Virus record (IMG/VR): IMGVR_UViG_2636415959_000005
Length of the DNA stretch: 40,716 nt
Source of the DNA: a virus
Taxonomy: Duplodnaviria > Heunggongvirae > Uroviricota > Caudoviricetes
Strand: one strand, 5' to 3'
In this document: piece by piece, positions 779-6,430 of the stretch
Layout of the letters: each line of letters opens with the position of its first letter
How positions within the stretch are numbered: position 1 is the first letter of the stretch
Notes under the pieces: model-generated
Database searches by the model: none
The model's input: only the letters and a program-made list of their open reading frames with translations
Told to the model about the DNA's origin: nothing
Program-made: the position numbers and the translations under genes

Positions 779-1022
779 TGGGTTAGTTGAATTTACAACC
801 ATGCTCAGTATCTCGATAAGCGCAGAGAAATGATGCAGTGGTGGGCGGACTGGCTTGATGAAAAGGTAGAGTGAGCGACCTTAAACTATCGAATAGAACA
901 AAGTCTTGCAATCCAGTGCAAAGCTTTGTGTGTCTCCGTTTTGTTTCATCAGTTACACATAACTATATGATCATTAGCTAAAAGTCAGTATACTTGGAGA
1001 AATTTTAATTGCGTAATAGAGC

Positions 1023-2195
1023 ATGCATATGATTGAAATTAACAGTTTATTATTAATAACATCCGTGATATTGATGTCGTTATTAGCTGTGGGGTTATTT
1101 GATAAAATTTCCCCAATAAATCTTGTTGAGCACGGCAGGAATAATCAAATAGATGGAATGCGGGGGTTCTTAGCAATTTTCGTGCTTATTCATCACGCAG
1201 CAATTTGGAATGGATACTTGTCATCTGGAGTATGGGAAGCACCTTCATCAAATCTGTTAGCAAATTTAGGCCAAGTTGGTGTGTCATTCTTTTTTATGAT
1301 TACTGGTTATCTGTTCTTTTCAAAGATTATCTCTGGAGATCAGGACTGGACAAGGCTTTATGTATCAAGATTACTACGATTAACCCCAATGTTCATAGTT
1401 AGCCTATGTCTCATTTTTATCATTGTAGGTTTTAAGTCTGGATGGAGAATGCAGGTATCCACAGAAGAGCTTTTTGTGTCAATAATGAAGTGGTTGCCAT
1501 TCACTGCGCTAGGTATGCCGAACATTAATGACGTAAAAGATTCATTTACTATCAATGCCGCTGTAACATGGACACTTGTATATGAATGGTTCTTTTATTT
1601 TTCTCTTCCGGTAATTTCCGCGCTCATAAAAAGAAAAGTCAGTATTTACATGGTTATGATTAGCGCAATATCGCTATTTGTTTTCATTTTATTTTTCAGT
1701 AAAATACACATAGTATCATTTCTTTTTGGGCTCCTGGCATTTTTGCTAAATAAATCAAAGATAGTCAATGGAATTGCCAAAGCAAAAGTAACACCAATCA
1801 TAATAACTGCGATAATGATTTTTGAAATGACGTATTTCAAAACAACTTACGCACCGCTACCACTGATTCTTTGTGGAATAACATTTATCATTATCGCATC
1901 AGGTTGTGATTTGTATGGAATATTAAGATTAAATATAACCAGAAAGCTAGGAGAAACTACCTACAGCGTTTACCTTCTGCATGGGATATTCCTTTATTGC
2001 CTAATGACGTGGATTATTCCTAATAATTACACTGAAAATACATTTATCATACTGGTAAGCACAACTGCATTTCTTATTACGTTCACATCATGCCTAACTT
2101 TTAAATTAATAGAGACGCCATTCATCAAATTAACAAAACAAACCACAACTTTAGTAAAAGAATTAATACCCACATTAACAAACAACAATCAATAA
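1023..2195 (+). CDS. oac: O-antigen acetyltransferase, acyltransferase-3 family integral membrane protein (serotype-conversion moron)
   Basis: 390-aa polytopic hydrophobic ORF with the N-terminal motif (…NQIDGMRGFLAIFVLIHH…) typical of this family; visibly AT-rich. Exact start (1023 or 1029) uncertain. Confidence 0.75.
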   Translation: MHMIEINSLLLITSVILMSLLAVGLFDKISPINLVEHGRNNQIDGMRGFLAIFVLIHHAAIWNGYLSSGVWEAPSSNLLANLGQVGVSFFFMITGYLFFSKIISGDQDWTRLYVSRLLRLTPMFIVSLCLIFIIVGFKSGWRMQVSTEELFVSIMKWLPFTALGMPNINDVKDSFTINAAVTWTLVYEWFFYFSLPVISALIKRKVSIYMVMISAISLFVFILFFSKIHIVSFLFGLLAFLLNKSKIVNGIAKAKVTPIIITAIMIFEMTYFKTTYAPLPLILCGITFIIIASGCDLYGILRLNITRKLGETTYSVYLLHGIFLYCLMTWIIPNNYTENTFIILVSTTAFLITFTSCLTFKLIETPFIKLTKQTTTLVKELIPTLTNNNQ

Positions 2196-2208
2196 ACAAT
2201 AAACATAA

Positions 2209-2240
2209 GCCGCCCTACATATATGTCCCAATAGGGCGGC
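2209..2240. terminator. Bidirectional hairpin between convergent oac and tailspike genes
   Basis: Inverted repeat gccgcccta…tagggcggc with a 14-nt loop; T/A-rich flanks on both sides. Confidence 0.5.
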
Positions 2241-2248
2241 GAATGTAT

Positions 2249-3960
2249 TTATAGTAGTCTGGTAATGCTAAATGCAAACGAACTGGAGATTCCTGCTCCG
2301 CTAAGCGTATTGCGCAGGGTCACCCTAAATGTATCTACGCCAATATAAGTAACATCACAACTAACTGAATCAGGCGCAGATATAGGTGTTATCTGAACCA
2401 CATAACCATTAGTAGCTGCTGCGAGCGGATGAGAAAACGTTACATCATACACACCAGTAGCTACCACGCTTACTGAGGACACACCTGGAGCCACATCAAT
2501 GCTGCCATTCGAGTTAATCCTTCCAGAACGAGTAATACTTCCAGCAGAGACAGAAGTAGCCTTGCTGGTTTGCTCCATGAAAGTACAGCCAATATCAATT
2601 ACTTCGCAGTTAGAGCCTGTAACCCAATACGGTCGCGAGGCGCTTGGGACGTAAGAACCTACGCTCTTGAATGTCGTACCATTGAGAATTACAGTTACTT
2701 TTCCACCGCCAGAGCTTGTAATATTTAAGTTGTTTATGGTGTACATCGTACTGCTAACACGATGGAAGTTGCCGCCGTTAATAATTACGGTGACGGGGCG
2801 CGTTCCCGTGTTATCAATGCCAAGGTCAGAACCACCAGCGTTAGCCTCAAAATATGGGTTATTAAGTACCAAAGCACATGACCCATTAAGACCGTTCACG
2901 GCAATCTGCATACCGCCAGTGCCAGTATTACCTTGCGTGCCGTTACCCTCACAGGTAAGGCTATTGATGGTAGTCCCTGCGCCCCATCTGTCACCAAGTA
3001 TACCCCATTGTGTATTCTGGCTTGCGGTTAATCTGTTGACAGTAATTGCATTAAGTTCTGAAAAATCATCAGAATTAAGCACTCGCCACCCAATACGATT
3101 TGCCTGCAGGTACACATTATCCAATTCAGAAGTCAATACAGCGTCTGTTCGTAAACCTTCGCCGTTGGTATGTCCGTAAGATACTATATTCTCTAACTTG
3201 GCATATGCTTTCTTGGTTACGAGAAGACCGTAAGACGTTGCTGAGCCTTTAAGCGTAATATTTCCGAGATAATCATACGCATGTACTCGCTGTGTGCCAC
3301 CAACTGTATCACCGAGCATCTTTAAGTTGAAATCCGAGGCATGGCAGTTAAATATCGTTTCTGCCATATTTTCTCCGGAATAATGAGCACGGACTCCTGT
3401 CGAACCAATAAATTTAGCGTCATAGTTGCCGTAATCAAGAACGAGTGGTGACGCGATATCGTACACCCCTTGCTTTATTTTTAATGTTCCACCGAAAGGC
3501 CACGATGTAAGCGGGTCTTGATATATTTCATTTTTTATTGCAAATAGCTCCTCTTGGAGATTTTTGCCGCTATTAGTGCCAATGTGAGCAGCTCCTTCAT
3601 CTGATTGAAGTAACTGCTTTAACTGATCAGGATCGTACTTCAGCACATTCTGAAAATAGAACTGCTGCGAACCATACGCATCATATACAGCCATTGAATG
3701 GCCTTGCTCAGTTACAAATTTGGCAATCTGCCCGTTGTACACAGGATATCCGGCAGCATTGATAACAATTGGCTGAGAAACAGGGACGTGAGATCCGTCT
3801 TCATTCTCTACATAAACCTGAATCTGGTTTTCAGGATTTACCGGGTCAGTGTCAATTTTTCCGATATAAATTTTGCCATTGGCTACGGCTTTAAAAGAAC
3901 GCGCCATAGTGAAGAGTTGCGAAGGCATGCTTACCACAATATTTGCGGTGATATCTGACA
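2249..3960 (-). CDS. Tailspike protein (P22 gp9-like N-terminal head-binding domain, distinct receptor-binding domain)
   Basis: N-terminus [13 protein letters not shown]…[13 protein letters not shown]…LKYDPDQ matches the P22 tailspike head-binding domain; start set at MSDITAN (track ORF runs to 4009). Confidence 0.85.
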
Positions 3961-4082
3961 TTTCATTGCTCCAGACGAATGATATGATGCAACCATGATG
4001 TGATTGCATACCGAAATGGTACTATTGAGTATTTATCCAGTAAGTTACGATGCCATTCCACCCAACTGGTGAGGCATCAAGG

Positions 4083-4343
4083 ATGTACAGCAAATACGAC
4101 GAGGCGCAGTTTCACTTGAGACTTCCGCATGAACTCCACGCGAAAATTAAACAGCGCGCGAAGATGAATAACAGGTCGCTGAACTCAGAGATAATTGCAG
4201 CGATTGAAGAATCATTGGCTAAACAAAGCTCTGCATCAGTTTACATTGACGATGCAGAGCGTATGGCAGAACAACAATCCGATATGGTTAAGAAAATTGT
4301 CTTTGATACGCTCAAAGAGCTATATAAAAAAGACAGCAGCTAA
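4083..4343 (+). CDS. mnt: Mnt-like ribbon-helix-helix repressor (P22 immI-type), orphan
   Basis: Aligns with P22 Mnt as I recall it (…NNRSLNSEIIAAIEESLAK…DAERMAEQQSDMVKKIVFDTLKELYKKDSS); start set at MYSKYDE. Confidence 0.8.
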   Translation: MYSKYDEAQFHLRLPHELHAKIKQRAKMNNRSLNSEIIAAIEESLAKQSSASVYIDDAERMAEQQSDMVKKIVFDTLKELYKKDSS

Positions 4344-4363
4344 CTATCAGTTACGGAGGATTT

Positions 4364-4441
4364 ATGCAAAGAGATATGCTGAATATTGCGTTCTACATAT
4401 TTGGTTTTTGCACGTTCCTGGTGTTTGCGAAGCTATTCTGA
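4364..4441 (+). CDS. Possible 25-aa hydrophobic peptide (MQRDMLNIAFYIFGFCTFLVFAKLF) downstream of mnt
   Basis: ggagga Shine-Dalgarno 4 nt before the ATG; single predicted transmembrane helix; overlaps the 3' end of the gp16-like gene on the other strand. Too short to support by homology. Confidence 0.25.
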   Translation: MQRDMLNIAFYIFGFCTFLVFAKLF

Positions 4442-6430
4442 CAACGCATCAGACTTGGCACCTTGAGTCAGGGCGTTAATGGCCTTTTGCGCCTGCTGCA
4501 TGGCTTTCTCAAACGCTGTTGATCCGCGCGGGGTGTTTGCCATTCGGAGCATTGCATTTCTGAATGGCTCGCTCTCATAGGCGCGAGTAAGAAGTCCGTA
4601 GCTTACTGCTGCGCCAGTTGTCGCCGGGTTCATTGCCGTCCCATACCCAATAATGAACGGGATAGTTTGCTGCCCTGTGGGTGTTGTTACTGCCGCTTTT
4701 GCAGCCTGCTGCGTGGATTGCAGGTAGTTTTTTAATCCCTTCAGATAAGCAGCGTCCTGCCCCTTAAATGTGATGCCAGTCTGGTTTTGCAGGATGTTAA
4801 GCTGCCGAAGGAACTGGTCAGGGGATCCGCCAGATTTCTCCATCGCCTTTCCAATGATGCCATTGCGCATTTGCGCCCTGCCAACACGACCAACTGAGTT
4901 ATACAGCGTCTTAATTTCAGATTTGTTCTTGCTGAATAGCATGTTGTTGACAACTTCCGGCGTCAGATCGCCTTTCATGAGAACATTCTTCAGCCTGGTA
5001 TTCTTTAGTTTCGCTGCTTCGTCAGCGTAGACGGCATTGGCCTGCTGATATTTACGGAGAGTATCGTTGCCAAGATTCTGACCAATGGCACCATTGATAT
5101 CGTCGGTCATTGCCTTGTAAACGCGCTGAATGGCAGCATCGGAACGGTTTGGTAACACTGGTCGCTCACCCTTCACGTCCATTCTGAACTGGCTGCGCAG
5201 ATCGCTTAATTGCTTCAAATCCAGATTAACCGGACCATCAGGGCCAGCATTGCGAACAAGCTCATCACGATATGACTGAAGTTTTGAAATTGTCTCGTTA
5301 TCAGCTACCTTACCAAGCTTCTGCAGATTAGATATTTCTGTATCAATCTGCTGAATTGCTCGCGCAGGCTGAATGTTTACTCCAGCCATAGCATTCTGAA
5401 CCTGCTCCAGTCGATTACCGGCGGCACGACGAATTCCTGATGTTTTCGCTTTAAGACTGTCAATAACAACAGATGGATCATACTCACCGAATTTATCAGC
5501 AAATCTCTGCACCAACTGGCTTCTCGCTTCCTGTTGCGTTGCTCTCATTCCGCTTGTGCCAGCCAGGGGGATATTTTCTGCTGTAGTCTGCGCCATTTTT
5601 CCGACGCGGGAAGTGGGTTGTAACAGGTCTGTGGTGTGCAGAGGAACTCCTTCACGCTCTGCAAATCTGATAGCCTGCTGCGCTTCTGGCGCGATAGCAC
5701 CACGAACGCCACGATAAGCAGCACCTAATCCACGTCCGGCAGCGTTAATAGCACCGCCAGCAAGTACACCAACGCCTAAATCGGTGGCGAGTGCTTCCGC
5801 ATCATCTTTCGCACTATTTGCAGCAAGTGATCCAACTGCGTTTTCTGCTAGAAGGCGGGTTGCCCCCTGAGCAATTCGACCAGCAAGTGTTGGTGCCTGT
5901 GCTGCCGCTCTCTCAACGCCAGCAGGAGTGAGGTAAGGCAATGCTTCAGCAAATACCCTTCCCTCTGTCGTTTGTGGAGTCAGCGCACCTTGCTGAAGGC
6001 CAAAGTCCTGCTCTAATCCCTGCGTTGTTACTCGTGGTGCTGGTTGATATGTTCCATCGCCAATACCGAGTTTACCTCCGGCCCAAGCCGCCGCGCTTGT
6101 TACAGCATCGGCAACTGATGCAGGTATGTTTGCCACGTTCACGCCAGCCTGCACCAGTCCGCGACCAGTTTCTTTCACGGCTTCACCAAGATCAGACATA
6201 AATCCACTTTGCTGTGGTTGTTGCTGTGATACTGGTTGTTGTGTCTCCACTGGCTGCACAGATGGCAATGGATAGGCAGCATAGAAAGCTTGCTTAGCCT
6301 GCTCTGCATTTTCTCCGGCTTGCGGGGCAACGACTTCATTGAAGTATTGCTCCTGAGCCTGCGCTTTTTGTTCTGGTGCTAACGCCTGATACTGTGGAGA
6401 GGCGATAACATCTTTCCATGCTTTAGCCAT
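4433..6430 (-). CDS. Ejection/DNA-transfer protein (P22 gp16-like)
   Basis: 665-aa ORF in the conserved position and order of the P22 ejection proteins; Ala/Gly/Gln-rich. Confidence 0.7.
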   Translation of the reverse strand: MAKAWKDVIASPQYQALAPEQKAQAQEQYFNEVVAPQAGENAEQAKQAFYAAYPLPSVQPVETQQPVSQQQPQQSGFMSDLGEAVKETGRGLVQAGVNVANIPASVADAVTSAAAWAGGKLGIGDGTYQPAPRVTTQGLEQDFGLQQGALTPQTTEGRVFAEALPYLTPAGVERAAAQAPTLAGRIAQGATRLLAENAVGSLAANSAKDDAEALATDLGVGVLAGGAINAAGRGLGAAYRGVRGAIAPEAQQAIRFAEREGVPLHTTDLLQPTSRVGKMAQTTAENIPLAGTSGMRATQQEARSQLVQRFADKFGEYDPSVVIDSLKAKTSGIRRAAGNRLEQVQNAMAGVNIQPARAIQQIDTEISNLQKLGKVADNETISKLQSYRDELVRNAGPDGPVNLDLKQLSDLRSQFRMDVKGERPVLPNRSDAAIQRVYKAMTDDINGAIGQNLGNDTLRKYQQANAVYADEAAKLKNTRLKNVLMKGDLTPEVVNNMLFSKNKSEIKTLYNSVGRVGRAQMRNGIIGKAMEKSGGSPDQFLRQLNILQNQTGITFKGQDAAYLKGLKNYLQSTQQAAKAAVTTPTGQQTIPFIIGYGTAMNPATTGAAVSYGLLTRAYESEPFRNAMLRMANTPRGSTAFEKAMQQAQKAINALTQGAKSDALSE

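Follow-up and report, generated by a model that had tools for sequence, protein, structure and literature searches.

A P22-type head-binding domain joined to an Sf101-type receptor-binding body in the tailspike of a P22-like prophage of Escherichia coli G3/10

The stretch of DNA analysed here (IMG/VR record IMGVR_UViG_2636415959_000005, Caudoviricetes; 40,716 nucleotides, hereafter the window, in whose coordinates positions are given unless another sequence is named) carries, on its minus strand, the gene of a phage tailspike, the protein with which this report is concerned. A mechanical call of open reading frames places this gene at 2249..4009. We take it to be 2249..3961, encoding 570 amino acids, because the ATG at 3961, the biological tailspike start, is preceded 7 nucleotides upstream by a GGAG Shine-Dalgarno sequence (3969-3972), and because the full-length homologues, all of 570 amino acids with the N-terminus MSDITAN or MTDI, start at this same position. 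A 586-residue product beginning at the in-frame ATG at 4009 was rejected, as that codon has no Shine-Dalgarno sequence and the homologues all start MSD or MTD; the 16 extra upstream codons (3962..4009, minus strand), used by no homologue, are an artefact of open reading frame calling. The upper coordinate of 3960 given by the first-pass annotation, a brief earlier reading of the same DNA, was one nucleotide short. The gene and its parts are as follows.

2249..3961, minus strand: tailspike gene, 570 amino acids plus stop, matched over its full length by the Sf101 tail protein
3969..3972, minus strand: Shine-Dalgarno sequence GGAG, read from the sequence, 5' of ATG 3961
3623..3961, minus strand: head-binding (virion attachment) domain, residues 1-113, with matches to PF09008, P22 gp9, Sf6 gp14 and Sf101
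3491..3622, minus strand: linker or neck, residues 114-157, predicted helical at low confidence (AlphaFold2 predicted local distance difference test, pLDDT, 59-80)
2588..3490, minus strand: right-handed parallel beta-helix by prediction (residues ~158-458), where the O-antigen is presumed to be bound and cleaved
2252..2530, minus strand: predicted C-terminal beta-sandwich, residues 478-570, from AlphaFold2 secondary structure

The N-terminal module is a canonical head-binding domain. Residues 1-113 cover all of the Pfam model Head_binding (PF09008; positions 1-113 of 113, expectation value E=2.3e-65, 218 bits), and align without a gap to residues 1-113 of P22 gp9 (BLASTP, 74.3% identity, E=1.6e-52), which bears out the earlier statement that about the first 110 residues follow the P22 domain up to the motif LKYDPDQ. 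This motif (residues 107-113, window 3623-3643) closes the domain. Identity is higher to residues 1-116 of Sf6 gp14 (PDB 7sg7, ~97%) and to HK620 (~90% over ~113 residues), the DNA of the domain is 100% identical to that of Sf101, and the solved head-binding domains 1lkt, 2vky and 7sg7 are the PDB sequence matches of the N-terminus. Similarity to most other P22-like phages stops at this point, with megablast matches to some 27 of them all ending at gene nucleotides 338-348 (residues 113-116). Pairwise alignment to the P22, Sf6 and HK620 tailspikes, which the first-pass annotation had proposed as a means of placing the breakpoint, gave BLASTP matches that end at residues 113, 168 and 156, respectively. 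The neck that follows carries the junction motif L..L.S..GA..IG, which in alignment is common to Sf11 gp13 and HK620. The fusion of a head-binding domain to this body is confirmed, and lies far beyond chance.

The body that follows, of 457 residues, is not matched significantly by BLASTP to its counterparts in P22, Sf6 or HK620, and when searched alone against Pfam it returned no family at E<=1, signatures of the P22 type such as PF09251 included. Profile comparison with hhalign, using a body-only alignment, gave probabilities of only 3.7, 1.5 and 0.2% against the Sf6, HK620 and P22 bodies (an untrimmed alignment is dominated by the head-binding domain, and is uninformative on the body). Homology to the endorhamnosidase bodies was found neither over residues ~114-667 of P22 gp9 nor over ~117-623 of Sf6 gp14, where BLASTP covers the head-binding domain and neck only. 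Structure prediction, also proposed earlier, was run with AlphaFold2 on residues 114-570 (monomer; 33-sequence alignment) and returned a model with a mean pLDDT of 86.3 and a predicted template modelling score (pTM) of 0.79, consisting of a low-confidence helical neck, a long beta-helix (~158-458) and a C-terminal beta-sandwich (~478-570). The body is thereby predicted to have the beta-helix of a P22-like tailspike, in the same right-handed fold class as P22, Sf6 and HK620 despite the lack of relatedness in sequence. Foldseek pairs the model with Sf6 gp14 at E=5e-7, with a template modelling (TM) score of 0.37 and 11% identity, a link at the level of fold only, and all fold matches have at most 14% identity and TM scores of 0.2-0.47. 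The earlier claim that some 460 residues are unrelated to the P22 body therefore holds for sequence, by BLASTP, Pfam and hhalign alike, but not for the predicted fold.

Relatives of the body were found elsewhere, and by sequence comparison the tailspike is an uncharacterised allele of an already known architecture, the fusion being neither new nor unique. The Sf101 tailspike (orf15, AII27839.1) matches the window protein at 87.8% amino acid identity over 570 residues, which comes close to the full-length identity to one known tailspike that the first-pass annotation had set against its own claim of a chimera. Homology of the Sf101/SfX/Sf11 type extends over the whole body, from neck to C-terminus: Sf11 gp13 aligns over 449 amino acids from residue 122 to the end (85.5% identity, E=0), and the SfX tailspike fragment (L05001.1) aligns to the last 128 residues (443-570, ~85%). 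The exact protein has already been deposited (WP_072016580.1, KGM59671.1, QNJ65972.1), and homologues of 570 residues from E. coli and Shigella flexneri prophages, at 86-95% identity, form more than 30 clusters in the protein database. A search of 5426 complete E. coli RefSeq genomes, a set without the source strain, gave a full-length match in PapM-32-1 only (87.3%). Homology to bodies with other N-termini begins at residues 110-136, and at these positions the body is joined in the database to at least six different N-termini, comprising the P22 head-binding domain, PF18668 (Tail_spike_N, in Sf11), a T7 tail-fibre domain (PF03906) with PF18668, and three unassigned; an adaptor-free form of 447 amino acids is also present.

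Since Sf101 and over 30 clusters share this fusion, and the exact protein had already been deposited, we regard the architecture as inherited and widespread. The earlier description of a chimera stands insofar as two modules meet at LKYDPDQ, and fails insofar as it was held to be peculiar to this genome. A chimera made in this genome or recently, in which a P22-type N-terminus acquired a foreign body as a new host-range determinant, would account for the break in DNA similarity to most P22-like phages at nucleotides 338-348, and for bodies in P22, Sf6 and HK620 that lack sequence similarity to this one. It is hardly credible, however, given that Sf101, the 570-residue clusters and also SfX share the architecture, and that the DNA is identical to Sf101 through codon 131, across LKYDPDQ, so that the joint must be inherited; the full-length homologues already refute it. 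Earlier work described the modular plan of a head-binding domain and a variable body, with a junction near residue 115, both in P22-like phages generally (PMC2629481) and in Sf101 itself (PMC4159516); that podophages and the siphophage Sf11 have tailspike bodies in common has also been discussed (PMC12724387).

The known systems differ from the window tailspike in distinct ways. P22 gp9, Sf6 gp14 and HK620 gp9, all solved endoglycosidases, have a homologous head-binding domain at the same gene position and share the plan of neck, right-handed beta-helix and C-terminal domain, but their bodies are longer (507-597 amino acids, compared with 457 here) and without detectable sequence homology; Sf6 infects S. 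flexneri, the host species of Sf101 and Sf11. Sf11 (Cedarrivervirus) has a homologous body but is a virulent siphophage, and its gp13 attaches to the distal tail protein by a wholly different N-terminal adaptor, made up of a helical bundle and PF18668. The SfX tailspike, of which the record holds a fragment only, is likewise convergent with an O-antigen modification gene, although in SfX the modification genes are gtr glucosylation genes and not oacB (PMC4159516). Sf101 is closest, being, like the window prophage, a Lederbergvirus with the same two-module plan over the full length, an mnt gene on one side of the tailspike and an identical OacB on the other. It differs in carrying a diverged allele at codons 132-533, in a 10-residue tandem duplication that is missing from the window protein, in integrating at sbcB and not at lambda attB, and in its gp16-type injection gene, which in the window is Sf6-like (97%) and not Sf101-like.

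We aligned window 814-4351 to the Sf101 DNA and followed it by sliding identity and by Nei-Gojobori estimates of synonymous (dS) and nonsynonymous (dN) divergence. DNA identity is 99.8% in oacB and 98.6% in mnt, and 82.2% in the tailspike body, where it falls to 64-70% at window 2532-2781. The divergence is confined to a single block.

2363..3566, minus strand: island of divergence from Sf101, codons 132-533, with flanks 99-100% identical

The first difference from Sf101 falls at codon 132 and the last clustered difference at codon 533, and dS is 0 both for residues 1-113 and for residues 541-570. In the body dS is 0.57 with a dN/dS of 0.16, and dN/dS is 0.09-0.18 in every segment compared. 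Identical flanks (dS=0) around a body with such values indicate that the body is an old and selectively constrained allele brought in by homologous recombination, i.e. an allelic replacement. Rapid in situ diversifying selection on the body was also considered and is ruled out by the high dS and a dN/dS of ~0.16. The domain-swap boundary of the first-pass annotation is accordingly correct as the joint between modules at LKYDPDQ, but relative to Sf101 the edge of recombination is codon 132, with the other end near codon 533. The Sf101 neck has a perfect 30-nucleotide tandem duplication (L001, ~4396-4425, opposite window ~3566), precisely at the left boundary of this block. Within the block, residues 391-480 of the window allele are nearer to Sf11 gp13 (dS 0.54, 88% amino acid identity) than to Sf101 (dS 2.7, 70%). 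Compared with other prophage alleles the window protein is a patchwork, resembling one of them (P0001) over residues 151-360 and another (P0002) over residues 361-570, and these alleles vary most in residues 270-300, 330-360 and 390-510.

The genes and sites around the tailspike, and those that delimit the prophage to which it belongs, are the following.

1023..2195, plus strand: oacB, O-antigen O-acetyltransferase B (AT3 family), convergent with the tailspike; PF01757 Acyl_transf_3, E=2.5e-32
2209..2240, between the convergent tailspike and oacB: GC-rich 10-bp inverted repeat with a 12-nucleotide loop; RNA fold -22.9 kcal/mol, z=-3.9
4050..4343, plus strand: Mnt/Arc-type ribbon-helix-helix repressor gene, divergent from the tailspike; PF03869 and PF11423
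568..582, minus strand: lambda att core GCTTTTTTATACTAA, exact match, at the prophage/host junction beside ybhB
39372..39386, minus strand: second copy of the lambda att core, at the other prophage junction, beside the integrase gene
38228..39298, plus strand: lambda-type integrase of 356 amino acids, with PF00589 and the lambda Arm-DNA-binding domain PF09003, just inside the att cores

The Acyl_transf_3 protein at 1023..2195 confirms that the tailspike stands beside an O-antigen-modifying gene, as had been noted before. It is orthologous to Sf101 OacB, with which it is identical at 390 of 390 amino acids, and has only 26% identity to Sf6 Oac; the 3/4-O-acetylation of RhaIII by Sf101 OacB has been verified by nuclear magnetic resonance (PMC4159516). 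The GC content of 0.35 over window 1001-2000, lower than the ~0.50 found in most of the prophage, suggests a foreign origin of the oacB region. The hairpin at 2209-2240 is followed by a U-rich tail on the minus strand, and is likely a bidirectional terminator; P22 and Sf6 have annotated terminators at the equivalent position. A simple consensus terminator scan missed it, owing to the 12-nucleotide loop, and it was found by folding. On the other side, the mnt-type gene has been called elsewhere as 86 amino acids, with a start near 4083. A second mosaic junction lies just past mnt, near window 4351-4363, and is followed by the gp16-type injection protein gene (4433..6430, minus strand), which has 97% DNA identity to Sf6 gene 13; the Sf101 counterpart is unrelated DNA, encoding a 911-residue protein annotated as a transglycosylase.

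In other genomes this type of tailspike adjoins either OacB (99% identity for the copy compared, the others having an AT3 gene that agrees in size and position) or gtrA-gtrB-gtrC, and its locus is either ybhB/lambda or sbcB-dacD. In S. flexneri CP026799.1 (L010, 5780-8334) a 92%-identical tailspike lies at the ybhB/lambda att, beside gtrA-gtrB and a 421-residue gtrC-like gene. As this tailspike adjoins gtr genes and not oacB, the conversion module is exchanged separately from the tailspike. A related prophage on a metagenome scaffold (L014, 1648-3954) has an IS66-family element (tnpA, tnpB and a DDE transposase) between mnt and the tailspike.

The tailspike belongs to a complete, apparently intact P22-like (Lederbergvirus) serotype-converting prophage of ~38.8 kb. 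The att core occurs exactly twice in the window, in the same orientation, where 0.03 copies are expected by chance; outside the cores lie a ybhB-like PEBP-family gene followed by a bioA-like gene on one side, and a pectinesterase-family gene, probably ybhC, on the other. Two att cores and a lambda-type integrase place the prophage in the classical lambda attB, between ybhB and the ybhC-like gene. Gene order is that of P22, Sf6 and Sf101 (injection genes, mnt-type repressor, tailspike, conversion gene, att), so that the tailspike gene stands where P22-like phages carry it, after the injection and immI genes and next to the conversion genes and att, and the structural genes are 94-97% identical to those of Kapi1, CUS-3 and Sf101. 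The contig with the exact tailspike (GCA_000768425.1 / JPKI01) is from E. coli G3/10 (DSM 16443), one of the strains of the probiotic product Symbioflor 2 (PMC4358396).

Taken together, these observations favor a reading, to which we give a probability of roughly 85%, in which the protein is the gp9-equivalent tailspike of an intact P22-like prophage at lambda attB of E. coli G3/10, combining a head-binding module with an Sf101/SfX/Sf11-type body that would bind, and probably cleave, S. flexneri-type O-antigen, the polymer that OacB would then modify. Tailspikes of P22-like phages are homotrimers in the virion, with six trimers per tail. The same oligomer is presumed here from homologues, e.g. 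the Sf11 gp13 trimer (PMC12724387), and residues 1-113 would plug this trimer into a P22-type tail hub. The body (~158-570) would bind and probably cleave the rhamnose-rich S. flexneri-type O-antigen, and in doing so lower the virion onto the outer membrane. In the lysogen, OacB would acetylate the same O-antigen and change the serotype, which would probably lower re-adsorption and may protect against superinfection. The S. flexneri-type substrate is suggested by the host ranges of Sf101 and Sf11, together with the linked and identical OacB: Sf101 infects S. flexneri serotypes Y, 1a, 1b and 3b, and infection by Sf11 needs complete lipopolysaccharide with O-antigen (PMC12724387). A relationship between the O-antigens of E. 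coli O13, O129 and O135 and those of S. flexneri has been reported, as relayed by later papers (Perepelov 2010, cited via PMC4159516 and PMC7685785), and the E. coli host probably carries an O-antigen of the O13/O129/O135 type.

From these comparisons, the tailspike is most likely an O-antigen-specific adhesin and endoglycosidase for S. flexneri-type O-antigen, with glycosidase activity suggested by conserved acidic residues. Three acidic residues of the predicted beta-helix stand out in an alignment whose homologues reach as low as 28% identity: E338, which never varies, and E372 and D379, each conserved at 90% or above. We take them as candidate catalytic carboxylates, and such conservation is what a glycosidase would be expected to display. 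The body could instead be an adhesin that binds without cleaving, or have some other chemistry (deacetylase/esterase, lyase), which we consider improbable in view of these carboxylates. Beta-elimination by a lyase is unlikely in particular, as uronic acid is absent from the S. flexneri-type O-antigen. The characterised O-antigen tailspikes of the same fold, those of P22, Sf6 and HK620, are moreover endoglycosidases (PDB titles; PMC2629481).

Several points weigh against the assignment of an O-antigen endoglycosidase with this substrate. We know of no enzymatic assay for any member of the body family. The fold matches speak to fold class and not to catalytic chemistry, and come from a structure predicted as a monomer. 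A strong body match was returned by the PDB sequence search, to 9OCC (Sf11 gp13), but the body is without an experimental structure, because 9OCC models gp13 at residues 4-59 only (PMC12724387). The O-serogroup of E. coli G3/10 was not found in the literature, one review included. Finally, the body differs from that of Sf101 at ~14% of amino acids, and at up to 30% in residues 391-450, and with such divergence its specificity may differ from that of Sf101.

This last point leads to the alternative that the allele has diverged enough to recognise a glycan other than that of Sf101 and Sf11, such as a capsule, or an E. coli O-antigen that is unrelated or carries other modifications. The drop to 64-70% DNA identity at window 2532-2781 within a body otherwise at 82%, the concentration of allelic variability in three patches (residues 270-300, 330-360 and 390-510) and a host that is E. 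coli and not Shigella are all in keeping with it. We nevertheless think it unlikely, as the 100% identical OacB requires an S. flexneri-type RhaIII acceptor (PMC4159516), dN/dS of 0.09-0.18 in all segments points to conservation and not to retargeting, the stretch that departs most from Sf101 has 88% identity to gp13 of the S. flexneri phage Sf11, and the O-antigens of E. coli O13, O129 and O135 are reportedly akin to those of S. flexneri.

The reading of an S. flexneri-type O-antigen tailspike can be extended, tentatively and with doubt prevailing over belief, to the evolution of the body family. Relative to Sf101 the receptor-binding block alone (codons 132-533) would have been replaced, by an incoming allele that is itself a patchwork, as part of an ongoing flow of alleles of one O-antigen-binding module between temperate podophages, lytic siphophages and other morphotypes, and the variable patches might tune tolerance to O-antigen acetylation or glucosylation in E. 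coli with Shigella-like O-antigens, the probiotic strain included.

For basic biology the finding carries little weight, as modularity at the YDPDQ junction is textbook knowledge for P22-like phages, and this combination of head-binding domain and body was already described with Sf101 in 2014. Mild novelty lies only in the sharply bounded replacement of a beta-helix allele, and in a probiotic strain harbouring an intact OacB-converting prophage. The locus does provide a clean natural case in which recombination exchanged the beta-helix body only, between flanks that are otherwise identical, and it belongs to a body family with at least six N-terminal adaptors in the database. A Symbioflor 2 strain with an apparently intact serotype-converting prophage and the Shigella O-acetylase OacB may, in addition, matter for the characterisation of that strain.
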